Counted from the stretch's first letter, positions 26,779-41,808 are shown. The stretch: DNA of 64,000 nucleotides from Candidatus Melainabacteria bacterium (GCA_016193285.1 JACPSL010000025.1:58523-122522); one strand, 5' to 3'. The notes: generated by a model not told the origin, from the letters alone. Numbers and translations: made by a program.

Positions 26779-26790
26779 TTGATTGTGTAA

Positions 26791-26837
26791 AAAAAACAAA
26801 AAGATTTTTTGAGGTGAGGTGAGAGTGATGGGGTAGG
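26791..26837. repeat. island repeat family A, copy 1 (AAAGATTTTTTGAGGTGAGG + G-rich tail)
   Basis: One of five imperfect copies at 26791, 27551, 28251, 29076 and 29549. Each lies immediately 3' of a minus-strand cassette. Confidence 0.7.
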
Positions 26838-27063: not shown

Positions 27064-27525
27064 TTATACCCTGAGTTCAAGTGGTGTAACAATTTCAGGG
27101 AGAAATAGACCTAATGTTGCATTTATATTTTTCATATGTATTTTCTTGTTTACGTTTGCTAGATGGGCACAGTTCCAGGTTAATAAGATATCAATTTTGT
27201 AAACTGAAGCAAATGCTAGATGCAATGCATCTCTCGTATCTTTTAATGGCATTAATTTATTCTTAAGATAGATTTCAATAATCTTATCAACTTGTTCTAT
27301 AGGATTTAATATATGGATGCCTTTTGTTAGCTTTATTGCATATATTTGATTTGGGAAATTTCCTCCTTTTAGTTCTTCTAAGACAAAATTGCTTATATAT
27401 AAATCATAAAAATGTTTTTCATTGTTCCACCATTCTCTTGTTCTCTTAATATGAACATCAAGCTCTGATCTTTCATCAACATAATAACTAAAAATAGTTG
27501 TATCTAAATAAACACTTTGTTTCAT
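27064..27525 (-). CDS. PIN-domain protein (VapC-like toxin), paralog 1
   Basis: N-terminal V-Y-L-D-T-T acidic motif and C-terminal DALHLAFASV...LLTWNCAHL region shared with the other two PIN paralogs. Confidence 0.65.
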   Translation of the reverse strand: MKQSVYLDTTIFSYYVDERSELDVHIKRTREWWNNEKHFYDLYISNFVLEELKGGNFPNQIYAIKLTKGIHILNPIEQVDKIIEIYLKNKLMPLKDTRDALHLAFASVYKIDILLTWNCAHLANVNKKIHMKNINATLGLFLPEIVTPLELRV

Positions 27526-27550
27526 AATACATTTAATTTTAGCACTCTAC

Positions 27551-27608
27551 AAACACGAGAAAGATTTTTTGAGGTGGGGTGGGAGTGGTGGGGGGTAATG
27601 GGGTGAGG
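27551..27608. repeat. island repeat family A, copy 2 (longest G-tract: GGTGGGGTGGGAGTGGTGGGGGGTAATGGGGTGAGG)
   Basis: Seen directly. Confidence 0.7.
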
Positions 27609-28186: not shown

Positions 28187-28250
28187 CTACAACAAGTGAT
28201 CTAATATACATGTAACCAAAGGTTACATAAGTATTTTAATTAACATTACA

Positions 28251-28298
28251 AAAACACAAGAAAGATTTTTTGAGGTGAGGAGTAAGGGGATAGAGTGA
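28251..28298. repeat. island repeat family A, copy 3
   Basis: Seen directly. Confidence 0.7.
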
Positions 28299-28469: not shown

Positions 28470-28988
28470 TTATTGTGAAACAAATTCTCTTGGTGAAACA
28501 ATTTCAATTAAGCTATAACCTTCTCGTAAATTAATTACGTGAACACCTTTAATAGTTCTAGCTCGTACGATATGTTGAAAGTTCCATGAGACAATAAAAT
28601 CACAATGATTTAAACTAGCAACAGCAATGTGAATAGCATCATTGATAGCATTAGAAGGCATCAATCCTTCATTAGTATAAATCTTAGCTAGATTATATGA
28701 TTCATTGCTTGGAGTTAGAATCTCAGGTTGATATTTTTCAACCAATCTCAATAACTGTTTACGCCTTGTGTCATAAGCTCTATTAATTTCAACTTCAACA
28801 ACTTCTGATATACAAAGTAAATGACTTTTACTTTTACCATAAACTTCTAAAAAATCTATAGTTAGCCTGTACTCACTTCTATTGGTTTCAAGAGCTAAAT
28901 TCCATATAGAGGTATCAATATAAAGCTTTGTTTTCTTAATCATTATAATGATTATAACAGCTAGTTGTTCTGTCATGATATTCAACAA
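28470..28988 (-). CDS. PIN-domain protein (VapC-like toxin), paralog 2
   Basis: KLYIDTSIWN...DAIHIAVASL...SWNFQHIV...IEIVSPREF is close to paralog 3. The likely true start is MIKKTKLY at 28943, behind a TGnTATAAT box. Confidence 0.65.
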   Translation of the reverse strand: MLNIMTEQLAVIIIIMIKKTKLYIDTSIWNLALETNRSEYRLTIDFLEVYGKSKSHLLCISEVVEVEINRAYDTRRKQLLRLVEKYQPEILTPSNESYNLAKIYTNEGLMPSNAINDAIHIAVASLNHCDFIVSWNFQHIVRARTIKGVHVINLREGYSLIEIVSPREFVSQ

Positions 28989-29075
28989 AAAATATTTCTA
29001 AAGAAAGGAGCAAAAGAAGATCTTCTTGAACTAAATTACTACTTCGCTAGAAACTAGATGATAGAAGAACTTTCT

Positions 29076-29118
29076 AAAAAACACAAAAGATTTTTTGAGG
29101 TGAGGAGTAGGGGGATAA
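29076..29118. repeat. island repeat family A, copy 4
   Basis: Seen directly. Confidence 0.7.
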
Positions 29119-29427
29119 CACATCATCAGAGCGACACATCAAATATTAAGTCTTCATTCAAATTTTATAGATGTGACTTTTGGTTGCGTGAATTTTTAAT
29201 TCAATATGATATATTTACGAGCATGATCACTGAAGATAAAAAATATATCTCAAGTGTTTTAAAGAATTTAGGGTTCGCATTTCTAACACCTTTGGGCTCA
29301 GTTACTTTTCAATATCTGGTTCTAAAAAAGAGCTTCTTTAGTGGACACACGGCCTTATGTTCATTAGCATCATTTGTTGGTTGGTGATTATTGTTTTTAG
29401 GGTATAATTTTGTTAAGGAGAAGAAAA

Positions 29428-29547
29428 ATGATAAGTAACCTTGAAGGTTTAATAGCAGTTGGCTCAATATTAATTCCTGCAATACTTTTAACTGTATACT
29501 TCATATACGATCAAAATAAAACTAAAAAAAGAGAAAAGAAAAGTTAA
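29428..29547 (+). CDS. possible 39-aa single-TM peptide (MISNLEGLIAVGSILIPAILLTVYFIYDQNKTKKREKKS)
   Basis: Not in the supplied track (below its size cut-off). TATAAT at 29403 and AAGGAG at 29415 precede the ATG at 29428. One TM helix plus a basic tail. Confidence 0.3.
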   Translation: MISNLEGLIAVGSILIPAILLTVYFIYDQNKTKKREKKS

Positions 29548-29548
29548 A

Positions 29549-29590
29549 GAAAAACACAAAAAGATTTTTTTGGTGAGGGATGGTGGAAGG
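29549..29590. repeat. island repeat family A, copy 5
   Basis: Seen directly, immediately 3' of the five-gene minus operon. Confidence 0.7.
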
Positions 29591-29603: not shown

Positions 29604-30386
29604 TTATTCTACAATAATTATTGTTTTCCCAGATGGTGAGAACTTAAATTCAATACCTTCATTTTTTCTTGACAACACTTTTCTAAGAGCAATGTCAAAG
29701 TCTTGCCAATTTTGAACATTGTTTTGCATATCATTTGTAAAATCTATTTGCTCGGCAGACTCAAATGAATAACCTAGAATGTCGTTATCCACTAGTACAC
29801 GCCTTGGTATAACTCTAATATTTCCATTTTTACTTGTAGTAACTGCATAGTGTAGGTTCCCTCTCCATGTGCCTTCTCGATGAATAATCGTAAATATTGT
29901 TTTACCTGGCTCTGATTCACCTTTTAGTTCTCTTAGTTTAGGAGTTAGCTTTCTAAGTGAGCTTACTATATCAGATGTATCAAGACCATTAATTTGATAT
30001 TCTTTTAAAGCTAAAGCAGCAGCTATCAATTCTAATACGCTTGGATCAAGGGGCGCTCTTTCATGTGTGGCGTTCTCGCAGCTTTTTAAAAATGACCAAA
30101 ATTCCTCATACCTACCATACCTATCAGCTGCGTCCTGAAAACTAATATGAATTCTTTCAAGTTCTTTTTTTGCTTCGTTTAAGTTAGTTATTTGTTCTTT
30201 TGTTTCACTAGTTGTTTCTGCTCTACTCTTGAATTTGTCAGTTGTTGACTTGCTGAATATTGTATATGAGTCAGGAGTTGGCTTTAATATTCCTGATGGT
30301 TTTGGTTTCCCTTCTTCTTTTTTCTGTGCCTGCCCAACAGCTAGTGAGGGAAGCATGTTGTGTGTCATTAATGATACTGAATACAT
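29604..30386 (-). CDS. hypothetical protein (last gene of the caspase-like operon)
   Basis: A 260-aa ORF; no motif recognised. Confidence 0.5.
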   Translation of the reverse strand: MYSVSLMTHNMLPSLAVGQAQKKEEGKPKPSGILKPTPDSYTIFSKSTTDKFKSRAETTSETKEQITNLNEAKKELERIHISFQDAADRYGRYEEFWSFLKSCENATHERAPLDPSVLELIAAALALKEYQINGLDTSDIVSSLRKLTPKLRELKGESEPGKTIFTIIHREGTWRGNLHYAVTTSKNGNIRVIPRRVLVDNDILGYSFESAEQIDFTNDMQNNVQNWQDFDIALRKVLSRKNEGIEFKFSPSGKTIIIVE

Positions 30387-30480
30387 AAAAAATCAGCTCC
30401 TAGAAATACAATGCTTGTATGCAAATAAATTTGATAATGGTACAAAACTAACAGGTTCTTTAGTTCAAAAAACTGCACAT

Positions 30481-32274
30481 TTATGCAGCAATAATTTCTT
30501 CATTAATTGTTAATCTTTGATTCAATGGATTTAAATTGTTTATTAACTTAATCTTAACTGGTTTTTTATCGGGGGGTTGTTCTGTAGAGTATTGAATCAC
30601 TTTAGCGTTTTGTTTGTATTTGCTGTAATGTGCTAACTTTTTTACAGTGTGCATAGCATGAAAAATATTTCCAAAGGATGGATTTAAAGGCTCATTTCTT
30701 ATTCTCTGGTATTTTAAAAACTTATAATACCAGGATAAATAATAGTTAAATGCTGAAGATCTATCTTCACCATCAAACCCTTTCATGCTGTGATTAACGA
30801 CTAATGCTTCTTTTGCAGTTAAGGCAGCATATGACTCTCCATCTCCTGAAGAAGAAGTAATTATCGTCACATCTTTTACAGGAAGCTGCTTATTTCCAAT
30901 CTTAAAGTTTTGCAAGCAAGCAATTATTTTATCACCTTGAATTTCAGATCTACATGAGTCTGCAATTATAACAAACTTCATGCTCTTACAAAGTGGTCCA
31001 CCATTATCATCTAAGCTTGCAATTGCTTTTGCAATCTCTTCAGACGTAATATCACTGTCTGAAGCTTTTATACATCCATTCTTATCTCCATGCATATTAT
31101 AGTGAAATATGAAGGTTGTTTTACCACTAGCTTTTGCATTGTTTGCAGCTTTTATAAATCTATCTAAGATATTTTTTTTTGTAGCTGTTAAAGCTTTTGG
31201 TAAGGAACCATCTTTAACTTGTGGTAGTTCATCCCATATCCCACGGTTTTCTACACAAACAGTAAAGTCACTAATATTAAAATTTTCTTTGTAAGTCATT
31301 CCTATTTCAGCAAGGTCGTTTTCTATCTCAACTAATTCTCCAGGCACACTTGCTAAGAAACAAGCCGTACTCCCATCTTTTGGAATGTCAATTTTATAAA
31401 AATTCTCCCAGGATAATTGTTGTCCCTTAAAATTATTAGTTTCTAATTTTATTTTTTGTTTAATAAGTTCAATTAACTCATCTTCTGTTTTTATGTTACT
31501 TAATTCTAGACAACTTAATCCAATAAAAACAGGCTCACTATTTTTACTTGTAAAGTTATTAGCTAAGATGAATTCAAACACTCTGTGTATATTTCCATCA
31601 CCATTAGATATTCCAATACATTCAAGAGGAATACCAGTATCTTCCTTAACCTTATTTAAAACTGCATCCAGATTAAAATTCTTATCATTTTCTTGAAGGA
31701 TTTCAGTGAGTGTTTTATTTAAGAATACTTGGGTTTCCTTAAATGTAACTGTTTTTTGAAGGTTATTCAAAATAGCTTTTAGTTTTTTTGCAGTAGAAAT
31801 TACTTCACTAGCATATGGTTCATATTCATATAAACTTTTTGCTTGGTTTTCAAGGATAAAGTTAGGATCTATCAGGGCTAATTTAAATGCTGCTTCTTTT
31901 CTTATTTCTCTTGCTTTTTTGCTGCCAAGAGTTTCTTCTAATTTTTTGTAGTCGGTAAATATTAATCTTGGATTTTTTTCAACAGATGCATCTATACCTT
32001 CTTTAGGTATTTTTTCTAATTCTTCTTGATTCTTCTTATTTATTTCAACAGCGTTTGTAAAAAAAACAGATTTTATGAATCTTCCAAGTAATATAAATGG
32101 TGAAAAAAGTATTTTTAGCATTTTTACGAAAGTGCTACTTTTATCTTCAAGTACTTGAACTGATTGATACTGAGAGTTATTGGATTTAGCAAGTAAGGAG
32201 TTATTATGAGAACTAACATGTTGCAGATTATTCTTGTCCTCAACTTGATTTCTAAATCTAAAGCTAATTTCCAT
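30481..32274 (-). CDS. caspase/metacaspase-like (clan CD, C14-type) cysteine protease-domain protein
   Basis: The C-terminal half has FIFHYNMHGDKNG ... (46 aa) ... FVIIADSCRSE. This is a His-Gly / Asp-Ser-Cys dyad with the spacing and flanking beta-strand pattern of metacaspases (FHYSGHG ... DSCHSG). Confidence 0.6.
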   Translation of the reverse strand: MEISFRFRNQVEDKNNLQHVSSHNNSLLAKSNNSQYQSVQVLEDKSSTFVKMLKILFSPFILLGRFIKSVFFTNAVEINKKNQEELEKIPKEGIDASVEKNPRLIFTDYKKLEETLGSKKAREIRKEAAFKLALIDPNFILENQAKSLYEYEPYASEVISTAKKLKAILNNLQKTVTFKETQVFLNKTLTEILQENDKNFNLDAVLNKVKEDTGIPLECIGISNGDGNIHRVFEFILANNFTSKNSEPVFIGLSCLELSNIKTEDELIELIKQKIKLETNNFKGQQLSWENFYKIDIPKDGSTACFLASVPGELVEIENDLAEIGMTYKENFNISDFTVCVENRGIWDELPQVKDGSLPKALTATKKNILDRFIKAANNAKASGKTTFIFHYNMHGDKNGCIKASDSDITSEEIAKAIASLDDNGGPLCKSMKFVIIADSCRSEIQGDKIIACLQNFKIGNKQLPVKDVTIITSSSGDGESYAALTAKEALVVNHSMKGFDGEDRSSAFNYYLSWYYKFLKYQRIRNEPLNPSFGNIFHAMHTVKKLAHYSKYKQNAKVIQYSTEQPPDKKPVKIKLINNLNPLNQRLTINEEIIAA

Positions 32275-32352
32275 AATTAAAAAGATATGTTTAGGATTTT
32301 TATCCTAATATTTACAAAGTAAAAAGAAATTAATTTTTGATAATTTTTATGA

Positions 32353-33378
32353 TTAAGTGTTTTGAGTAACGTAATTCCAGGTAGGTGTAAATATCTTATC
32401 CTTTATAGCATTGCCAGCAAATTGATTTAAAAGTCCACCAGCACAAATTCCAGTGCATATTGTAAGCCCAATTGCTACCCAACCTACAGGGCTTATTAAA
32501 GCAAATGCTGCAGCTATTCCAAGTCCACACAAAGCTATATTTGTCCAAGCTTCACTAGTTCGCCCACCGTGAAATTTATTAACAATGCCAGCTATTTCAA
32601 AACCTGCTCCAAGTACTGACGCAATACCACCTAACCATTTAAGAGTACCTGCAAAAAATCCTTTCCATGAAGCTCCTGTTCCATTGATCGCTCGTCCTAC
32701 CAATGTTCTAGTCGACCATAACTTTTTATCATAAGATGCCAATTTAAATGCTTTATCAGCACCCATATATTTAGCTCTTTCGAAACCACTTGCAATTCCA
32801 CCTAGTTGAGCCATATTTACAGGATGAGTAAAAGCATCTCTTGCATTAGTACCTTTAAGAGTTTGTATAATGTCGTACTTATCTAATAAGAAATCTGGAT
32901 CTTTTATATGATCTTGTATGAGTTTGCATATTTTTAAGAAGTCTTCAGCATTAGATATTTTAAAGTTGCTTGCTAGTTCTTCTAACTTTTCTTTATTATA
33001 TTTTTTGTCTTCATCAAGGTTATCATAATTATCCTGTTCAGTATTTTTTCCTAACTGATCAATTATGTTACCTATTTGAATTACATCGAGCTTTCCACCT
33101 GTTACAGTATAAAAATGTTCTGCAAGAGATCTCATTTCTCTTTTATCTCGTTCTATTTGTCCATTAAGTTCTAAGAGTCCTTGATTATCTCTGGGTATTC
33201 CAATAAGAGCTGACTGAATAGCACTTTCTCTTGCAGTATAGCTTAAGCCTTTTTTGTTTTTATATGCTTCTCTTAGTTTTGCTAATTTAGGTTCAACATC
33301 ACTACCACCATCTCCAAGAGCTGTACTTGTTCTTCTACTACTACCAGTACGTGGTACAAGTATTTTAAGTATTATCAT
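32353..33378 (-). CDS. glycine-zipper membrane protein (soluble N-domain plus C-terminal 2-3 TM Gly/Ala-zipper helices)
   Basis: C-terminus LGGIASVLGAGFEIAG...RTSEAWTNIALCGLGIAAAFALISPVGWVAIGLTICTGICAGG...KDKIF; paralogous to the C-terminal domain of 37321..38121. Confidence 0.55.
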   Translation of the reverse strand: MIILKILVPRTGSSRRTSTALGDGGSDVEPKLAKLREAYKNKKGLSYTARESAIQSALIGIPRDNQGLLELNGQIERDKREMRSLAEHFYTVTGGKLDVIQIGNIIDQLGKNTEQDNYDNLDEDKKYNKEKLEELASNFKISNAEDFLKICKLIQDHIKDPDFLLDKYDIIQTLKGTNARDAFTHPVNMAQLGGIASGFERAKYMGADKAFKLASYDKKLWSTRTLVGRAINGTGASWKGFFAGTLKWLGGIASVLGAGFEIAGIVNKFHGGRTSEAWTNIALCGLGIAAAFALISPVGWVAIGLTICTGICAGGLLNQFAGNAIKDKIFTPTWNYVTQNT

Positions 33379-33502
33379 AATATTCTCCTAAAATAATATT
33401 TTGTTATTCACTACATACAAAGCAATATGTTGTAGTTAGTTGATAGGAGATTATTGAAAGGGAGCAAGATTTATTGTTAACAAACTTATAACTAATTTGT
33501 TC

Positions 33503-35800
33503 TTATTTTTCTTTAGGATCAAATCGTCTGTCATTCACAGATATAGGTATGTTTAAATATTTATTATGTTCATTTTGAGGGACGCCAGCAGCAACAAGTG
33601 TGTTACGGTCAAATTTTTGTGTTGGATGGAGTAATTCGTGTTGTTCTTGATCGTCCTGATCCTTCTTTGTTGGAACAAGTCTTTCAATACTATCTTTTAC
33701 TAGATATGCCCAGGAGTAAGATGCTGCCCTATTTAATGATTCTGTTGGCAAAGGATAAACATGAGGTCTTCCAGCAAAAAGTTTTAATTCGTCTGTTTCT
33801 CCTTTTTCTTTACGGTGTGCTATTAATATCTTTATACAGTCTAAAAGCCTAAGAGCTGTTTTATTGTCAGGATTATTTTCATCTTTTATATTTTCATCAT
33901 TAATTTTGCTTTCATCTGGTGCTTTAAGATCTACTTTTAATGTTTCTGAAATATCTTTTAAAAGACAATCAGTTTTAACTACATATTCTTTAAAATGACT
34001 TGGTTTGTTGTTTGTATCAAGAACAGCTATTAGAATAGTACACCAATCATCTCTGTAATAAACTTTTACTCTTAAATTATTATGGTTAAATGCTGGCAAT
34101 GATTTACCTAGTACTGATCCTATTTTCTCTTCTAGTTTTTTTTCATCTGTTGTTGTTTCGTAGATATTCTCTGGCAATTTAATTGAACCTACAAATTCTT
34201 TGTCTAAATCTTTTCTTTTTTTTCTACTTAACGCAGAATCAAACGAACTTCTTAATTCCTCTCCATCTTTACCTTGAATCTCCCTTATATAGCCACTTTT
34301 TAAATCTGCCAAATCTCCTGCAAAAATAACTTTTCTACTTCTCTTCTCTTGTATTTTAAATGCTTCAAGAATATCTTGATTTGGGTCAGTAGTAGCTTTT
34401 ATAAAAACTACATGCTCAATAAATAATTTTCTTAGCTTTTCTGTTGTATCATCATTGTCATTGCTCTTTAATTTCGATTTTTCATCCTTATCTATTATTT
34501 TGGCCTTCTCTAGCTCATCTAGAAATTTATCTTTAGTAAATGTAATTGAATAAGCTTGGTAGTTTCCTGCTGCATCTTTTTTCCAGATTAGCGATTCACA
34601 GCATAGAGTCTCACTTGGAGTACCTTCACTAGTCTTAAAAGTGGAAAGTGTAATTCTGTATTCATCTTCATTAATAAACGGCGGCCTTCTATTTGGTGGA
34701 ATATTTGTAGTCGAAGATTTTGGGTAACCTTTTAAATAATCATTAACTACTGGATTATTTTTTTCAATCTTAACTTGTGAAATAGATTCTGGTCTATAGC
34801 TAGAATCTGTTGATTTTCTGTATAGATCTTCGTATGTTGTACTTTCTATAAATTTTGCACCATCTTGAGCTAGTTGTTCTTGATCATCACTAGCTACATA
34901 TGTTTTATACAATAGCTCTGTAAACCTCTGATGTCCATTTTTAAATTCAACTTCACTACCAGGAGGGCGATAACTTCTGCCTGTTGGGCTTAAAAATATT
35001 ACATTTTTAACCTTGTCCTGCTCAGATGAGTTGACAGCTAAATCCTCAAATTCCCTAGTCCCCCACAACGCAATTTTTATTTTTTTATCAGGATCAGTTG
35101 ATCCAAAATATTCAATTGTCTGTTTAGCTTTAGCTAATGGAATAATAATTTGTCTGTTTTCTTTTTTACTAGAAAAGTTTTCATCTCCTACTATGTAGTG
35201 TATATCCTTTCTGTCTACTATCCACGCTGTTACAGTCTGTAGTGTTTTACCTTCTCTATCTTTTACTTTATAAGTACCAAGACTTATAACATTTGAATCT
35301 TCTTCATGTGGAGTTTCTTTTTTGTATCGATTTATGTGTGCTAATAGATCTCTTGGGGTGTCTGTTTTTTCAAGCCTTACAATTATTTCAGGTTTAGGAG
35401 GAGAAGGTCTTGTATCTGATGGTGGAGCTGGTTTTGGAGTAGTGCTACCAGTAGAAGAGTCCTCTATCAGCTTTCCATCTTTTGACAAATTTAATAACTC
35501 TAGTACATTTTTCTTTTGCTCATTGCTTAGAGATGATTCTCCTAAATGTCTAATGTAATCAAAATAAAGATTTTGTTTTGAACTAAATTCATCTTTTGTA
35601 ATAAGAATTTGGTTAAAGTTACTAAGATGACCAATACTTAAAGCAGCTTTTAATTCTTCTGTGGTAAGTAGTCCATCTTTTTTTCCAACTACCTTACCAG
35701 AGCGATCCAGTATTCCAATTGAAAGATCAGTTTTTAATAGCTGTTGTATTTTTTCTATTCTTTGTTGTATAGAAGGAGTTGTTGTAGCAGGTGGATCCAT
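33503..35800 (-). CDS. large hypothetical protein with a Pro/Thr-rich linker
   Basis: A 765-aa ORF with a low-complexity linker (STGSTTPKPAPPSDTRPSPPKPE); no catalytic motif recognised. Confidence 0.5.
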   Translation of the reverse strand: MDPPATTTPSIQQRIEKIQQLLKTDLSIGILDRSGKVVGKKDGLLTTEELKAALSIGHLSNFNQILITKDEFSSKQNLYFDYIRHLGESSLSNEQKKNVLELLNLSKDGKLIEDSSTGSTTPKPAPPSDTRPSPPKPEIIVRLEKTDTPRDLLAHINRYKKETPHEEDSNVISLGTYKVKDREGKTLQTVTAWIVDRKDIHYIVGDENFSSKKENRQIIIPLAKAKQTIEYFGSTDPDKKIKIALWGTREFEDLAVNSSEQDKVKNVIFLSPTGRSYRPPGSEVEFKNGHQRFTELLYKTYVASDDQEQLAQDGAKFIESTTYEDLYRKSTDSSYRPESISQVKIEKNNPVVNDYLKGYPKSSTTNIPPNRRPPFINEDEYRITLSTFKTSEGTPSETLCCESLIWKKDAAGNYQAYSITFTKDKFLDELEKAKIIDKDEKSKLKSNDNDDTTEKLRKLFIEHVVFIKATTDPNQDILEAFKIQEKRSRKVIFAGDLADLKSGYIREIQGKDGEELRSSFDSALSRKKRKDLDKEFVGSIKLPENIYETTTDEKKLEEKIGSVLGKSLPAFNHNNLRVKVYYRDDWCTILIAVLDTNNKPSHFKEYVVKTDCLLKDISETLKVDLKAPDESKINDENIKDENNPDNKTALRLLDCIKILIAHRKEKGETDELKLFAGRPHVYPLPTESLNRAASYSWAYLVKDSIERLVPTKKDQDDQEQHELLHPTQKFDRNTLVAAGVPQNEHNKYLNIPISVNDRRFDPKEK

Positions 35801-35805
35801 AGTTA

Positions 35806-36933
35806 TTAATTTGTAAGTGGAACAAAATTTCTTACTCCTTTACCTTCTGTATGTTCAACTTCAGCAATACTTCCATCAATAAGATTAGTAATTGTTTTAT
35901 CACTTGCACTAATACTTAAAACTAAGTCTTGCATAAGATTCATACCTCTTTCCCTAAGTGAAATTAATTTATTATAAAAATCTTCTCCAAATCTTTCTAT
36001 GACAGAATTTTTACCGGCAGGGCGTTGAAGGTAGTCATCTTGTCCAAGAAATATAGCTTTTTTGTTTTTAATTTCGTTTGCATTTTCTCCTTTTAAAGTG
36101 AGAGCTGAAACAAAGTCAATTAATTTTTGACCTCTTAAAAATACATAGCCTTCATCTTTTTCTAATTTATCTAAGTAGTCTTGTTTATATGTTCCTCTAA
36201 ATGCAAGTCTTGTATTACGGGATGAGTCTTGGTCTGAGTACCATATTATAAAAGCAGGTTTATTTGTACCTTTTCTAATATAGTGAACTATTTTTACCTT
36301 ATTCCCAGCATCTACTGATTTGACATCTGATGGTTTAGTCCCTTCTGCAATATCAGTATCTATTGCTCTTTTTATATCATCAGGTATAGTTCCTGCTGGT
36401 GTTGCACTTGTTGATGTTACAGTATCTGCTGGTTTTATTTTCTTAATTAGATCTTCTAATTTTGTAAGTATTGCTTTTTGATCACCAGTTAAATCAGTAG
36501 CTGCTTTAAGCTTGTCAATTAAGTCAAGAAGTTTTTCTTCAGCTTCTTTATTCTTAAAACTAAAACTACCGTCCGGATTTCTAACAATTAATCTTTGTGA
36601 AATTAGTATGACTACTGGTTCCACAAAGCCCGGGAAAATTTTGCTTAAGAATTCTTTAGCTTGATTTATTTCCTCTGGAGTATAATTAAAGTCATCTGGC
36701 TCGAGAGTTTCATTTGCACCTCTTTTTGCAATTTTTTTAACTCTTTCTTGATCTACTTCATTAGTACCTCCTGCTTTGATAAAGCGATCAACATTCTTGT
36801 TCAGTTGATCATACAGTGCTCCTTGGGCAGGATTAGTCTTTTTTTCTTCTTCAATCTTATTTTGAAATTCTTTCTTACTAGTAGGTTTTCCTGCGTTAAA
36901 TAATTTACTGATTAAATCTAATGTTAAACCCAT
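35806..36933 (-). CDS. hypothetical protein (first gene of the minus-strand operon)
   Basis: A 375-aa ORF, 5 nt upstream of the next gene. Confidence 0.5.
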   Translation of the reverse strand: MGLTLDLISKLFNAGKPTSKKEFQNKIEEEKKTNPAQGALYDQLNKNVDRFIKAGGTNEVDQERVKKIAKRGANETLEPDDFNYTPEEINQAKEFLSKIFPGFVEPVVILISQRLIVRNPDGSFSFKNKEAEEKLLDLIDKLKAATDLTGDQKAILTKLEDLIKKIKPADTVTSTSATPAGTIPDDIKRAIDTDIAEGTKPSDVKSVDAGNKVKIVHYIRKGTNKPAFIIWYSDQDSSRNTRLAFRGTYKQDYLDKLEKDEGYVFLRGQKLIDFVSALTLKGENANEIKNKKAIFLGQDDYLQRPAGKNSVIERFGEDFYNKLISLRERGMNLMQDLVLSISASDKTITNLIDGSIAEVEHTEGKGVRNFVPLTN

Positions 36934-36986
36934 GACTTTCCCTCCAAATATTTATACATTTATAGAAAGGAAAATATTAATTAAAA

Positions 36987-37028
36987 TTGACAGCTAAAAA
37001 AATATTAAACTTTGTAACTTGCTGTCAA
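36987..37028. promoter_or_regulatory. inverted repeat TTGACAGC-N26-GCTGTCAA in the divergent intergenic region
   Basis: Seen directly, ~55-95 nt upstream of the minus-strand operon start. Both arms are TTGACA -35-like hexamers facing outward. Confidence 0.35.
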
Positions 37029-37320
37029 TATTCTGTTTGCACTTACTTTGTAGTATCTGAGTAAGTAGAACCTCAAGTTCTATTTATTCTTAATACAGTT
37101 CTTACTTTGAATCTTAGTAGTTTTCTATTAAGGTCTTGAAGTAAACTTATTATTAAATCAAATATTTAAGCATAATATTTCTTTAGCTTAATAAAGCTAA
37201 ATGCAATTATAGATTGGTTTTGATAAGCTTATATGTTTAAGTATTTGATCTAAGGTTACTAGTTAATTAAGGTTAAGAAGTGATTAAGTAAAATTAAGTA
37301 AGAAGTAAAATAACAAAACA

Positions 37321-38121
37321 ATGTTTATATTAATAGCAGTTGTTGGAAAAGTTTTAACGATAGCAGCAGGAACTCCACTTGTAGCTTTTAAGAAAGCATT
37401 TAATGTTTTGACTGCAAGTAAAAGTGATATTCCTAAGTTATATTTAGAGGCTGAGCAAATGGCAGGCAAAGTGGCTATTGAAAAAGGATGGTTTGAATAT
37501 TTAGGTCATCTAATAGAAAGATTAGGTTATGGTATAAGAGCACAATTAGGTTTATATGGAATTGATAAGAATGGAGCTATTAAACATTTGTCTGAACTTT
37601 CAAGTGAATTTAAAGAGAAAGGTGGTTTACTGTCTGCTCTATCTAAAGGTTATCCTAAATTTGGAGAAGCTATGAAAGCTGCTACTACAGCTATTCCTGA
37701 GCTAGGAGGAAAAGCAATATTAGGTTTTAGAGGATTGGGAGCTATGGGTTTAGGTGCTCTTGGTGCTTTAGGAGTAGGTATATTTTCAATTGGTCTTATA
37801 ATTAGTTCTTATAGAGCAATAAATGCAAAAAGTAAAACGGAATGGGCAGGACCTGTAAAAACTACTACGTGGGATAAATTAACTACTTTGGCAGGACTAG
37901 CAGGTACTGCAGGTGCTGCAGCTTTATTTATTCCAGGAGCAAGTATAGCTTCGTTTGTCTTAATACCAGCTGCAGCAATAATGGCTGCTACTGGATTTGT
38001 CATGGATAAGATTTATAGTGGAACTACTTTTTATCATATGCCTGATCAGCTACCATATCCATTGAACGATGTAGCAAGATCAGTATTTAACGTAGATAGG
38101 CATATCCCTAGAATGCAATAA
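37321..38121 (+). CDS. glycine-zipper membrane protein, paralog of the 32353..33378 C-terminus
   Basis: GLGAMGLGALGALGVGIFSIGLII...KSKTEWAG...LAGLAGTAGAAALFIPGASIASFVLIPAAAIMAATGFVMDKIY. Confidence 0.55.
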   Translation: MFILIAVVGKVLTIAAGTPLVAFKKAFNVLTASKSDIPKLYLEAEQMAGKVAIEKGWFEYLGHLIERLGYGIRAQLGLYGIDKNGAIKHLSELSSEFKEKGGLLSALSKGYPKFGEAMKAATTAIPELGGKAILGFRGLGAMGLGALGALGVGIFSIGLIISSYRAINAKSKTEWAGPVKTTTWDKLTTLAGLAGTAGAAALFIPGASIASFVLIPAAAIMAATGFVMDKIYSGTTFYHMPDQLPYPLNDVARSVFNVDRHIPRMQ

Positions 38122-38155
38122 GTTTTGCTCTTGACATTAAAGTTAAAAATGTGTT

Positions 38156-38668
38156 ATGGTTGGATTAAAACCATATTTAAGATTTAAAAAAAGGTTGATA
38201 ATAAAAATGGATGTAGTTAGTTTATATGGCTCATATGTACAAGAAATAGTAATTCCAAAGTATCAGATTAATCAAAAACTTCTGAAAATGGTAGCTGCTA
38301 ATAAGTATGAAGAAATTGCTTCTCGTGAACTACCTAAATTGCATCGTGAAGCAAACAAACTTTCATTAGACTTAAAAGAAGCAGGAGGAGATCCAAAAAA
38401 AGCAAAAAAAGTAAAAAAACAACTAAGAGCCTTAGAAGTAAGAGCAAATAAACTAAATGAAATGTTTGCAGTTGTCAGTGACGATGAATTAGCAGCTGCT
38501 AAAGTAAATCCATCTAGAAAACAAGTTGAACAAATTATAAATGCTACTGTTGAATTAAATCAGCCTACTAAAAGTGAAACCCCACAAGAAAGTGTAAAAT
38601 CCCAAGTTGGTAAAAAATTAGTACGGGACAGCATGAATAATATTAAAAACAGTCAACAAGCTGCCTAA
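38156..38668 (+). CDS. hypothetical coiled-coil, lysine-rich protein
   Basis: ORF directly downstream of the Gly-zipper gene; the true start may be the internal MDVVSLY. Confidence 0.4.
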   Translation: MVGLKPYLRFKKRLIIKMDVVSLYGSYVQEIVIPKYQINQKLLKMVAANKYEEIASRELPKLHREANKLSLDLKEAGGDPKKAKKVKKQLRALEVRANKLNEMFAVVSDDELAAAKVNPSRKQVEQIINATVELNQPTKSETPQESVKSQVGKKLVRDSMNNIKNSQQAA

Positions 38669-38689
38669 ATTAGTTAGTTAGTTGAATGT

Positions 38690-38959
38690 TTAACTTCTTA
38701 AGAGACTAATTATACGTTCTAGAATTTTAAATCTATTTTCAATAAGCATGGATATAAGATTAACTCCTGCAGTTAAATATTTCATCTGAATTGTTAATGT
38801 GCCAATAGCTTTCTGTGCAATTGCTTTAGCTGTTGCGCTTGCAGTTGGATCCACTATAATCGCGTTATTCTGTGCAAGTTGTCCTTCAATTGTATTAGCT
38901 TCAGTCGTTACCCTTCCTAATTCACTACCTAAATCTAATCCGCCTACTGCTCCTGGCAT
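38690..38959 (-). CDS. hypothetical small Ala/Gly-rich protein
   Basis: An 89-aa ORF convergent with 38156..38668. Confidence 0.3.
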   Translation of the reverse strand: MPGAVGGLDLGSELGRVTTEANTIEGQLAQNNAIIVDPTASATAKAIAQKAIGTLTIQMKYLTAGVNLISMLIENRFKILERIISLLRS

Positions 38960-39096: not shown

Positions 39097-39669
39097 TTAC
39101 ACTTCTAATTTACGAGTAATATGGAAATATGAATTTTCAATTTGGGTTATCATTTCATTAAGTGTTTTATTGTCAAACTTTAAATCATTTAGTTTAATAA
39201 TCCCTTTAAATATTCCTATTTTATTTAAGTCAATTCCTTTTTCAATAATTTTTTGGGTGGGTATATTATCAGAGATAAAAAAGGAAAATTTATCATATTC
39301 AATATATAAAGGATTAATTTTTTCAAGAATGTTTTCAATGAACAAGATTATAGGAAAGTTATTACTTATACATGCATAAGATTGTGCTTTAGAACCAACT
39401 GAAAAAGCAATGTTAATTTTTCTGTCAGTAAGATACCTGTTTAAAAATACAGATCTGCAAATCGTTGAAAACTCTTCAAATAATCCAAATATTGATATGA
39501 TCCATCCAATAATTTTTGCCTCTAATTTATTTTCTTCCAGAACTTTTTTTATTTCGCTCGTGTTTTGAGCAGTAATAGTTACATCATGACCTCTTGACTT
39601 TAGTTCACTACTTAGTGCCTTTATAAAAGGAATGTGTTTAGGGTTATCAATGTCAAGCCAGATGTGCAT
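39097..39669 (-). CDS. DUF354-like protein fragment (N-terminal ~190 aa of a ~340-aa family; likely truncated)
   Basis: N-terminus MHIWLDIDNPKHIPFIKAL...LKSRGHDVTITA matches the conserved DUF354 start (MKIWIDI.N.PHV.F). A family B promoter/stub repeat sits in front of it. Confidence 0.4.
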   Translation of the reverse strand: MHIWLDIDNPKHIPFIKALSSELKSRGHDVTITAQNTSEIKKVLEENKLEAKIIGWIISIFGLFEEFSTICRSVFLNRYLTDRKINIAFSVGSKAQSYACISNNFPIILFIENILEKINPLYIEYDKFSFFISDNIPTQKIIEKGIDLNKIGIFKGIIKLNDLKFDNKTLNEMITQIENSYFHITRKLEV

Positions 39670-39727
39670 TTTTTACTTTATATTGTTTTTTTTTCATGAC
39701 TTTGACTTTATTATACCCAGTTTTTGC
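39670..39727. repeat. island repeat family B, copy 1 (promoter plus MKKKQYKVK antitoxin stub)
   Basis: The minus strand reads CTGGGTATAAT-AAAGTCAAAGTC-ATGAAAAAAAAACAATATAAAGTAAAA. The stub runs out of frame into the DUF354 ORF. Confidence 0.65.
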
Positions 39728-40015: not shown

Positions 40016-40501
40016 TTATTTTCCCAAGAATTGTCTTGGTGAAACTAATTCTATTAATGCATAACCTTCTCGTAGATTAATTATGTGTACTCCTTTGACA
40101 ACCTTTGCTTTGACTATATGCTTAAAGTTCCATGAAACAAGAAAGTCGCATTTGATTAATGATGCTATTGCAATATGCATAGCATCATCTCTATATTTAG
40201 CTGGTATTAATTTTTCACTAATGTAGGTATTTGCTAAGTTAAGTGTTTCTTCTTTATCAGGTTGAATAACTTCTGGGCTAAATGAATCAATTAATCTTGC
40301 AAGTTCATTTTTTCTTTTAGCACTTGCCCTATTCATCTCATCTTCTACAAGGTCTGAGATTAGTACTGTATAATTACTTCTCTTGTTTCTAAGCATCTTA
40401 AAAAAATCCCATGTTACTAAACAATCTGCTCTTTCTGTTTCGAGAGCAAAATTCCAGACTGAAGTATCAATATAAAGTTTTAGTGGTTTCCCCATTTTCA
40501 A
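40016..40501 (-). CDS. PIN-domain protein (VapC-like toxin), paralog 3
   Basis: LKLYIDTSVWN...DAMHIAIASL...SWNFKHIV...IELVSPRQF. Confidence 0.65.
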   Translation of the reverse strand: MKMGKPLKLYIDTSVWNFALETERADCLVTWDFFKMLRNKRSNYTVLISDLVEDEMNRASAKRKNELARLIDSFSPEVIQPDKEETLNLANTYISEKLIPAKYRDDAMHIAIASLIKCDFLVSWNFKHIVKAKVVKGVHIINLREGYALIELVSPRQFLGK

Positions 40502-40545
40502 TTTTTACTTTATATTGCTTTTTTTTCATGACCTTGACTTTGCTA
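40494..40545. repeat. island repeat family B, copy 2 (promoter plus 13-codon MKKKQYKVKIENG stub directly before the PIN start)
   Basis: Seen directly. Confidence 0.65.
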
Positions 40546-40661
40546 TCCTAAAGTATCTTAATTATATCCTCGGGGTAGATTTAAGTACAGAAGCAGGCTT
40601 TAACTCAAAGCCCATATTTACTTGCAAGAAATGTTTATCCATGGTCAATATTTCCTTAATT

Positions 40662-40934
40662 TTAAATTCTTGCATAACGACCATTGAAGACAAATCTACA
40701 AAAGAAATCCTTATAAACTACAGAATCTATTAATTCAGGGGTTAGTTCCTTATAATCTACTTCTGCACTTATACACCCTATTAATTCTTTAAGTAAGGCT
40801 TTATCTTCAGGATCCTCAAAATTTTCCTCTTCAAGAAAAATTATTATTCCTTCCTTGAAATTACTTAGATCTAAAGGTTCTAAAGGTTTTATTTCTCCAT
40901 TTTCAATTTTTACTTTATACTGTTTTTTTTTCAT
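40662..40934 (-). CDS. DUF104-type (KVKIENGEIKPLEPLDL) antitoxin-family protein
   Basis: The N-terminal consensus is typical of small antitoxins paired with PIN toxins. Confidence 0.55.
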   Translation of the reverse strand: MKKKQYKVKIENGEIKPLEPLDLSNFKEGIIIFLEEENFEDPEDKALLKELIGCISAEVDYKELTPELIDSVVYKDFFCRFVFNGRYARI

Positions 40935-40975
40935 GACTTTGATTTTATTATACCCAGTTTTTGCTTATACTTGGT
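40894..40975. repeat. island repeat family B, copy 3 (the intact promoter and 5' end of the DUF104 antitoxin gene)
   Basis: Seen directly. Confidence 0.65.
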
Positions 40976-41121: not shown

Positions 41122-41808
41122 ATGAAAGCAATTATTTTAGCTGGTGGAAAAGGTGAAAGGCTTAGTCCTCTTACAAGTAATTGTCCCAAGGGAATGATAA
41201 AAATAGAAGGTAAACCAATACTTGAATATCAAATTGAATGGTTAAAAAAGTATGGTGTCACAGAAATTATTTTTGCATGTGGGTATCTACATGAAAAAAT
41301 CAAAGAACACTTTAGAGATGGGGACAACTTTGGTATAAAGGTTTTTTATTCTGTTGAAGATGAACCTCTTGGTCGTGGTGGGGCTATTAAAAAAGCTCTC
41401 AGCATTCAGCATTCAGCATTCAGCTCTTTTTTAGTTATGAACGGTGATGTGCTTACTGAGATGAATTTAAGTTTAGCAATCAATGCTCATAACCTTGAAA
41501 AAAAAGATAAAAATATTATTGCTACAATTTGTTTGTTTCCTTATAAAAGTCCATATGGAATTGTAAGAGTAGAAAAAGATGGATTAATAAATAACTTTGA
41601 TGAAAAAGGAGCATTGCCTTATTGGCTAAATGGAGGGATTTATATTTTTGAAGCTGAAATAAAAAAATATTTACCTGACAAGGGCGATCATGAGACAACT
41701 ACTTTTCCAGAATTAGCAAGTAAAAAATTATTATATGGTTATAAATCCATTGATTTTTGGAGAGGAATTGATACTATAAAAGATTTAAACGAATTTTTAG
41801 TTACATGA
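41122..41808 (+). CDS. sugar-phosphate nucleotidyltransferase
   Basis: N-terminal ILAGGKGERLSPLT nucleotide-binding motif; 228 aa. It contains an in-frame CAGCATT x3 repeat. Confidence 0.75.
   Translation: MKAIILAGGKGERLSPLTSNCPKGMIKIEGKPILEYQIEWLKKYGVTEIIFACGYLHEKIKEHFRDGDNFGIKVFYSVEDEPLGRGGAIKKALSIQHSAFSSFLVMNGDVLTEMNLSLAINAHNLEKKDKNIIATICLFPYKSPYGIVRVEKDGLINNFDEKGALPYWLNGGIYIFEAEIKKYLPDKGDHETTTFPELASKKLLYGYKSIDFWRGIDTIKDLNEFLVT

Follow-up and report, generated by a model that had tools for sequence, protein, structure and literature searches.

Two glycine-zipper helical proteins at the start of an operon with a caspase-family gene in a Candidatus Melainabacteria genome: a possible protease-gated membrane effector and its partner

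Two hypothetical proteins with glycine-rich tails, here called A and B, are encoded around the start of a minus-strand gene cluster in a Candidatus Melainabacteria genome, and they raise the question of whether they are kin and what such a pair might do beside a gene for a caspase-family protease. The window, by which we mean the whole stretch of 64,000 nucleotides analysed (GCA_016193285.1, JACPSL010000025.1:58523-122522; about 30% G+C), belongs to a metagenome-assembled genome carrying HYY52 locus tags. The cluster consists of five genes, encoding in order a 375-aa protein, a 765-aa protein, A, a 597-aa protein and a 260-aa protein, with gaps of 5, 124, 78 and 94 nt between them; A is the third of these genes, with the 597-aa gene (the caspase-family one) directly downstream. 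B is divergent from the 375-aa gene across a 387-bp spacer and is followed 34 nt downstream by a gene for a 170-aa protein (coordinates are collected in Table 1). All of these genes lie in a 9.4-kb orphan island (29604..38959) encoding eight proteins. An earlier note on this DNA had described A and B as arranged divergently around the operon start, and open reading frame (ORF) calls and the NCBI annotation agree with it on both coordinates and strands. We conclude that A and B are genuine genes, restricted to their lineage, and encode proteins predicted to be all-helical. Reasoning by analogy, we give a probability of roughly 0.3 to the reading that A is a protease-gated helical membrane effector and B its co-assembling partner or antagonist.

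The module layout described for the two tails in the earlier note is real. In both proteins an amphipathic "GG" helix is followed by a hydrophobic helix rich in Gly, a short Trp-containing charged loop, a segment of about 40 aa that is rich in Ala and Gly and broken by a Pro-Gly turn, and then DKI[FY]. In A, whose start is preceded by a strong ribosome-binding site (AGGAG-N6-ATG), a helical soluble N-part (about residues 1-237) leads into a C-terminal membrane module made up of a Gly-rich helix (238-269), an RTSEAW loop (273), a hydrophobic region (277-318) and DKIF (327); its hydrophobic stretches are 248-266 and 277-318, the latter split by SPVG (296). The corresponding order in B is a Gly-rich, hydrophobic helix (132-167), a loop with KTEW (172) and TTTW (181), a hydrophobic stretch at about 186-231, split by IPGAS (204), and DKIY (229). 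The DKI[YF] ending had been described for both in the earlier note; the motifs of the K/R-T-x-E-W linker described there are also present, but their spacing differs between the two proteins. Gly, Ala and Ser account for 38% of the membrane module of A against 23% of its N-part, and for 41% against 31% in B, with the coding DNA of the modules also richer in G+C (41% vs 33% in A, 39% vs 34% in B). Small-xxx-small motifs are found at G250/S254, A253/G257 and G285/A289/A293 of A and at A141/G145/A149/G153 and A191/G195 of B, and the Kyte-Doolittle maxima over 19 aa (2.09 for A, 2.14 for B) both exceed the usual threshold of 1.6. The C-terminal glycine-zipper helices are in this sense confirmed, the term denoting a descriptive motif class ([GAS]xxx[GAS] runs along a single face of a helix that is hydrophobic) into which A and B both fall, and not a homology family.

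Some details of the individual genes may be added here. The hexapeptide LGGIAS occurs twice in A, at residues 192-197 (32788-32805) in the amphipathic helix that precedes the membrane module and at residues 249-254 (32617-32634) at the start of the first hydrophobic helix, and the partly differing codons of this pair hint at an old internal helix duplication. The annotated ATG of B lacks a Shine-Dalgarno sequence and an in-frame internal ATG at 37459 (Met47) is preceded by AGAGG-N8, so the first 46 residues are uncertain, and the hydrophobic N-terminal 23 residues may not be translated. A 64-aa antisense ORF at 37809-38003 (minus strand), inside the Gly/Ala-rich region of B, is most likely a by-product of GC-rich Gly/Ala codons and not a gene.

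Membrane insertion energies were estimated as a simple sum on the Hessa biological scale for the best windows of residues. The values for A were +1.1 kcal/mol (277-295) and +1.2 kcal/mol (299-317), those for B were +0.3 kcal/mol (143-161) and +1.3 kcal/mol (209-227), and the best hydrophobic helices of the two proteins span +0.3 to +2.2 kcal/mol. As controls, soluble proteins showed no window below +3 kcal/mol, and the polytopic proteins FtsW, Wzy and Wzx encoded in the same 64,000 nucleotides have several helices at -1 to -3 kcal/mol. Judged from sequence, the modules of A and B are membrane-compatible but marginal, which suits proteins that are soluble first and that insert after synthesis or as hairpins. 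Single-sequence AlphaFold2 models were all-helical for both proteins, at a predicted local distance difference test score (pLDDT) of 41.5 for A and 45.5 for B; these low-confidence models place helices at 238-269, 276-294 and 301-339 of A and at 112-170, 179-201 and 209-238 of B, with the three module helices at matching positions. Foldseek matches of the B model in the PDB were not interpreted because none fell below E 2.5.

We infer that A and B are probably very old duplicates of one module, and ancient paralogy is a plausible, if unproven, explanation of the sequence features towards which we lean. A possible alternative, though one we doubt, is that there is no kinship, that the tails are alike merely through low-complexity, Gly/Ala-rich hydrophobic helices, and that DKI[FY] and the Trp are coincidental. 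The direct comparisons favour this alternative. The earlier note had called the proteins paralogous and their C-terminal ~110 aa alignable, and no significant alignment was found there: BLASTP gave E 0.56 for the C-terminal piece (the lowest E for the pair, 0.099, lies outside the C-termini), hhalign returned nothing in the C-termini, and exhaustive phmmer with A failed to retrieve B, leaving "paralogous" suggestive by ranking only. When A166-341 was compared with B76-266 by Smith-Waterman alignment, z was about 4 against whole-sequence shuffles and only 0.7-2.7 against 10-/20-residue block shuffles, so the signal is mainly one of compositionally similar segments in the same order. No DNA-level repeat linking the two genes was found either, and any duplication would therefore be old.

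Against coincidence stand five features in the same order in two genes 4 kb apart within one orphan island, together with the way in which the A-B score ranks. An empirical null was drawn from ORFs of at least 100 aa at 80 unrelated loci (those of the NTP-transferase synteny search described below), giving 2022 ORFs, 335 of them with a transmembrane-like segment. The A-B score was reached by 0-2 of the 2022 under gap-tolerant scoring, where it was top-ranked, and by 18-27 of them under BLOSUM62 with standard gap costs (-11/-1), the latter being a further point in favour of coincidence; among the 335 transmembrane-like ORFs the numbers were 0-1 and 8-13, respectively. It lies above the score of 99-100% of the unrelated ORFs, corresponding to an empirical rank p of about 0.001 (gap-tolerant) or about 0.01 (standard scoring). 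Within the window, where 71 ORFs of at least 80 aa were ranked, including those for FtsW, Wzy, Wzx and NicO-type membrane proteins, B was the top non-self match of A in all three scorings and A that of B in two of three, so that they were mutual best matches in five of the six query-and-scoring combinations. All-against-all BLASTP gave nothing significant among the other island proteins. The main practical lesson is one of caution: what looks like paralogy is for the most part a matter of similar composition and of segments in the same order.

The neighbour of A is better defined. The 597-aa protein, named "caspase family protein" by NCBI, matches Pfam PF00656 at 24.7 bits (cut-off 21.4, E 2.3e-5) over residues 364-483, a region which contains the motifs HYNMHG at 391 (His395) and DSCRS at 439 (Cys441), with the His and Cys 46 residues apart. 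The profile match above cut-off and the His/Cys dyad, identified by motif inspection, place it in peptidase family C14, and the His-Gly/Cys pattern and its spacing fit the caspase/metacaspase family. It did not match any solved structure in the PDB by phmmer, and is the only protein with a family match among the eight of the island and the flanking 190-aa protein. The statements in the earlier note that A lies inside a protease operon and carries a soluble N-domain, put there at ~200 aa, hold, the N-part being helical and about 240 aa long.

All island proteins form singleton clusters. A word-indexed search of 5.8e9 proteins returned only A itself for A, and only the query among the matches listed for B and for the 597-aa caspase protein; an exhaustive phmmer search with A of 1.84e9 representative proteins (E<=0.001) also returned only A. 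No relatives of B were found in GTDB representative genomes or JGI metagenomes, none of the 765-aa protein in JGI metagenomes or IMG/VR and none of the 375-aa protein in IMG/VR, and a tblastn search of plasmids and phages with the eight island proteins concatenated gave no match. Apart from the 597-aa protein, 29604..38959 gave no match in Pfam, NCBIfam, PADLOC, PHROGs or the PDB. For A and B the whole of Pfam-A returned zero families even at E<=1, glycine-zipper, bacteriocin and colicin families included, and NCBIfam, PADLOC and PHROGs returned noise only. In PADLOC, A hit Cas12f (E 4.5e-4) and LeoBC within its Lys/Glu/Asn-rich helical N-part, and the 260-aa protein hit PDC-S04 (E 8e-4); these were rejected as compositional. 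Orphan status of this kind is typical of fast-evolving conflict genes.

What, then, might A and B do? We favour the protease-gated effector reading because of the functional anchor provided by the caspase-family gene downstream of A and the toxin-antitoxin-rich setting, and because A combines the gene order of gasdermin operons with the architecture of proven depolarising zipper toxins, both of which are compared below. The N-part of about 240 aa would keep A inactive until it is cut by the C14 protease; the freed Gly/Ala-rich helices would then insert and oligomerise through their small-residue faces, and the cytoplasmic membrane would be depolarised or permeabilised, with an outcome of the abortive-infection or cell-suicide type. 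B would be expressed from its own divergent promoter and would co-assemble with A, acting as its partner or, with greater likelihood, as an antagonist that does not conduct. That A and B serve as toxins or in cell suicide is a guess, and we consider it unlikely that the locus is, in full, a previously unseen cell-suicide module other than gasdermin in which a zipper pore of A is freed by the caspase and its paralogue B serves as an antidote through non-conducting hetero-oligomers.

Several observations weigh against the protease-gated reading, beyond the poor alignment of the two tails already described. Cleavage of A by the C14 protease is inferred, with no cleavage site nameable in A, and three other orphan genes of the operon have no role in the working model. 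The first helix of A (248-266) contains Lys and Glu and costs more than +3 kcal/mol. At pLDDT 41-46 the structure models cannot be relied on, and the fold search yielded nothing but noise. Neither A nor B has homology to a known toxin, defence or pore-forming family (glycine-zipper, bacteriocin, colicin, LXG or contact-dependent inhibition (CDI)). Finally, the island genes come from one clonal population only: contigs from four samples (sequencing runs) have 100% identical DNA, leaving no variation from which to judge selection. The value of the proposal is limited accordingly by singleton genes from one clonal metagenomic population, with no orthologues, no reliable structure model and no means of experiment in the native host.

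Two other functions should be considered. It may be that the C-terminal modules are membrane anchors or scaffolds which tether and oligomerise the N-parts, perhaps organising the island proteins, in which case there would be no pore and no toxicity and the C14 protease would have other substrates. We regard this as about as likely as the protease-gated reading. Gly/Ala-faced hydrophobic hairpins are common packing devices, the helices of A and B are marginal rather than strongly pore-like, and the three further orphan proteins of the operon could be functional parts of such an assembly, whilst neither the library scans nor the Pfam families of the window contain a toxin, immunity or delivery signature. 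However, the island lies among toxin-antitoxin and defence-type genes and A is co-transcribed with a caspase-family protease, a type of enzyme tied to bacterial pore-formers and immune systems in gasdermin operons (10.1101/2021.06.07.447441). Housekeeping scaffolds are, moreover, usually conserved, and A has no relative among the 1.84e9 representative proteins.

The toxin/immunity and effector/decoy relationships suggested in the earlier note are possible, with no supporting homology in Pfam, NCBIfam, PADLOC or PHROGs. If A were an interbacterial toxin, it would be a secreted or delivered glycine-zipper ionophore and B a membrane immunity protein with its own promoter. The order of a helical N-part and a Gly-zipper tail in A recalls TelE, EsxX and the CdiA-CT ionophores; B has a control region of its own and is encoded on the other strand; and glycine-zipper toxins mostly have membrane proteins as their immunity partners (PMC10434224). 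Nevertheless, the Pfam families listed for the window genes include none of type VI secretion (T6SS), type VII secretion (T7SS), CDI, Rhs, PAAR, LXG or lysis/export, the N-terminus of A does not look like a signal peptide, and phmmer against the 1.84e9 representatives found no polymorphic-toxin relatives sharing either of its domains. B is separated from A by two large genes and resembles it, whereas the immunity proteins of the compared systems are unrelated by family to their toxins. With no delivery system among the listed families and B not adjacent to A, this reading is weakened, and we think it improbable.

Table 1. Features of the orphan island and its surroundings, in positions of the 64,000-nucleotide window
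Feature	Coordinates	Strand	Basis
Third PIN gene	27064..27525		
260-aa orphan protein, last cluster gene	29604..30386	-	No family match
597-aa caspase-family (Peptidase_C14) protein	30481..32274	-	Pfam PF00656; 78 nt downstream of A
Gene A, HYY52_05655, 341 aa, NCBI hypothetical protein	32353..33378	-	ORF and AGGAG-N6-ATG
Membrane module of A, residues 238-330	32389..32667	-	Hydropathy, model helix boundaries, motifs
765-aa orphan protein, second cluster gene	33503..35800	-	No family match; without hydrophobic segment
375-aa orphan protein, first cluster gene	35806..36933	-	GGAGGG upstream of ATG
Divergent control region, 387 bp	36934..37320	.	Promoter-like site and inverted repeat
Gene B, HYY52_05670, 266 aa, NCBI hypothetical protein	37321..38121	+	ORF; start codon uncertain
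Membrane module of B, residues 128-232	37702..38016	+	Hydropathy, model, motifs
170-aa Lys/Glu/Ala-rich protein	38156..38668	+	No family match; possibly coiled coil
89-aa orphan protein, convergent with the B operon, right edge of orphan island	38690..38959	-	ORF, no family match

The spacer between B and the 375-aa gene contains a sigma-70-like site as the top candidate promoter of the minus-strand cluster (TTGACA 37028-37023, AATATT 37006-37001). Promoter-like sites in 36934..37320 numbered 42 against 48 expected, that is, not above chance, and so this site is a candidate only. It is bracketed by a 12-nt inverted repeat, AAAATTGACAGC / GCTGTCAATATT (36983-36994 and 37021-37032), whose arms are 11/12 complementary and 26 nt apart, and which is a candidate operator of the minus-strand operon. 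On the other strand, the 170-aa protein had been described in the earlier note as a coiled-coil partner of B; it is a small helical partner in a divergent unit, but its heptad support is weak, since in a crude test 6 of 200 shuffles did as well as the heptad-compatible stretch at 82-116.

The island is flanked by PIN-type toxin-antitoxin pairs, with PIN genes at 28470-28988 and 40016-40501 (both minus strand) whose proteins are 52% identical to each other and each of which has a small upstream partner ORF. On one side are housekeeping genes together with ParE-like, AbiEii, HNH and ATPase_2/DUF234 genes (Pfam), and on the other is a large cluster for polysaccharide synthesis, past which lies a Fic gene. 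The region reads as variable and rich in toxin-antitoxin and defence-type genes.

Two families of repeats accompany these genes. A repeat of about 45 nt is present in five copies (26785-26831, 27545-27591, 28246-28292, 29071-29117 and 29544-29590), reading CCCC..CACTCCTCACCTCAAAAAATCTTT.T.GTGTTTTT in the minus-strand sense. They are interspersed with minus-strand genes or toxin-antitoxin cassettes, in most cases just 3' of them, and the last copy is 14 nt past the stop codon of the final gene of the orphan operon, that for the 260-aa protein. No hairpin is obvious in the repeat, which has the look of a 3' element common to a cassette array, perhaps a terminator or a recombination site. The copy at 29071-29117 lies within a 109-aa ORF (29058-29387, plus strand) which gene callers treat as a gene and which is probably not a real one. 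A 66-nt repeat has copies at 39662-39727, 40494-40559 and 40899-40964, with 76-92% identity, each overlapping a start codon and the sequence upstream of it; the genes or ORFs concerned, all on the minus strand, are the 190-aa DUF354-like gene, a 161-aa PIN gene and a 90-aa ORF. This suggests a shared promoter or 5' element of three cassettes.

The 190-aa protein (39097-39669, minus strand) is annotated as DUF354 and is about half the length of that family, which we take to be roughly 335 aa; its gene may be a truncated polysaccharide-synthesis gene at the right border of the island. The polysaccharide cluster opens with an NTP-transferase gene (41122-41808, plus strand), the closest GTDB-representative matches of which are in archaeal metagenome-assembled genomes (48% identity to one from Sulfolobus, 42% to one from Nitrosopumilales). 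This search, made for synteny, returned no close Melainabacteria genome among the GTDB representatives. The cluster looks horizontally mobile, and the lineage looks to be one without a near relative among the representatives.

Set against known systems, A and B fail every named family tested, except for the descriptive motif class of glycine-zipper helices. The best PDB match of any note was that of A187-299 to TolQ 65-178 (phmmer E 0.07, not significant), an alignment that takes in the Gly-rich helix ("GTL..G..A..G....GI.N.F.G") and the helix after it ("GIA.A"). Assignment of A to MotA/TolQ/ExbB was rejected, with no match to Pfam MotA_ExbB (PF01618) even at E<=1, no TolR, ExbD or MotB partner gene and no such match for B. 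Pore-forming colicins are soluble helical proteins with an Ala/Gly-rich hydrophobic hairpin near the C-terminus, and the colicin immunity gene lies on the opposite strand with its own promoter and encodes a protein that is not known to resemble the colicin. The tail hairpin of A and the opposite strand and separate control region of B are similar to this; unlike colicins, A has no Pfam Colicin match, there are no receptor-binding, translocation or lysis genes, and B resembles A.

Closer in architecture are the membrane-active toxins with zipper tails. TelE (PMC10434224) and the CDI ionophores (PMC11630599) depolarise membranes and carry a helical zipper tail behind a helical N-domain, and EsxX (PMC12744356) is reported to be a membrane-active toxin with a glycine-zipper tail in the same position. 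Like TelE and EsxX, A has a helical N-terminal domain of about 200 aa, a C-terminal Gly-zipper region and small helical partners nearby. It differs in having no LXG match, in the absence of T7SS genes or WXG100 among the Pfam families of the window, and in having no DUF5085-type or polytopic immunity gene next to it. The host also differs, being a Melainabacterium and not a member of the Bacillota; Melainabacteria are diderm. The CdiA-CT ionophore, a small helical bundle, has a putative glycine zipper and dissipates the membrane potential; its partner is a hydrophobic membrane protein and its sequences diverge very fast (PMC11630599), features that the locus may share. However, A is a stand-alone protein of 341 aa and does not form the end of a giant CdiA, reading its translation revealed no VENN motif, CdiA/CdiB families are absent from the Pfam families of the window, and the gene directly downstream encodes a protease and not a small immunity protein.

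It is the gasdermin operons that offer the nearest likeness in gene order. In bacterial gasdermin systems the gene for the pore-former mostly adjoins one for a protease, of C14 or CHAT type, by which an inhibitory peptide is cut away (10.1101/2021.06.07.447441). No island protein has a gasdermin match in Pfam or PADLOC, and A and B are predicted to be all-helical with hydrophobic helices rather than to adopt the beta-sheet gasdermin fold; the putative inhibitory part of A is moreover a large N-terminal domain and not a short C-terminal peptide. What is shared is the adjacent protease gene, here for the PF00656 protein, directly downstream of A on the same strand and among defence-type genes, and, as we propose for A, autoinhibition that would be released by that protease. 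If this is the case, then bacterial caspase-type proteases would license not only gasdermins but also helical pore-formers of the Gly-zipper kind, the range of cell-death effectors gated by proteases would be wider, with an example in the non-photosynthetic sister lineage of the cyanobacteria, and a paralogue acting as antidote would represent an unusual principle of immunity.

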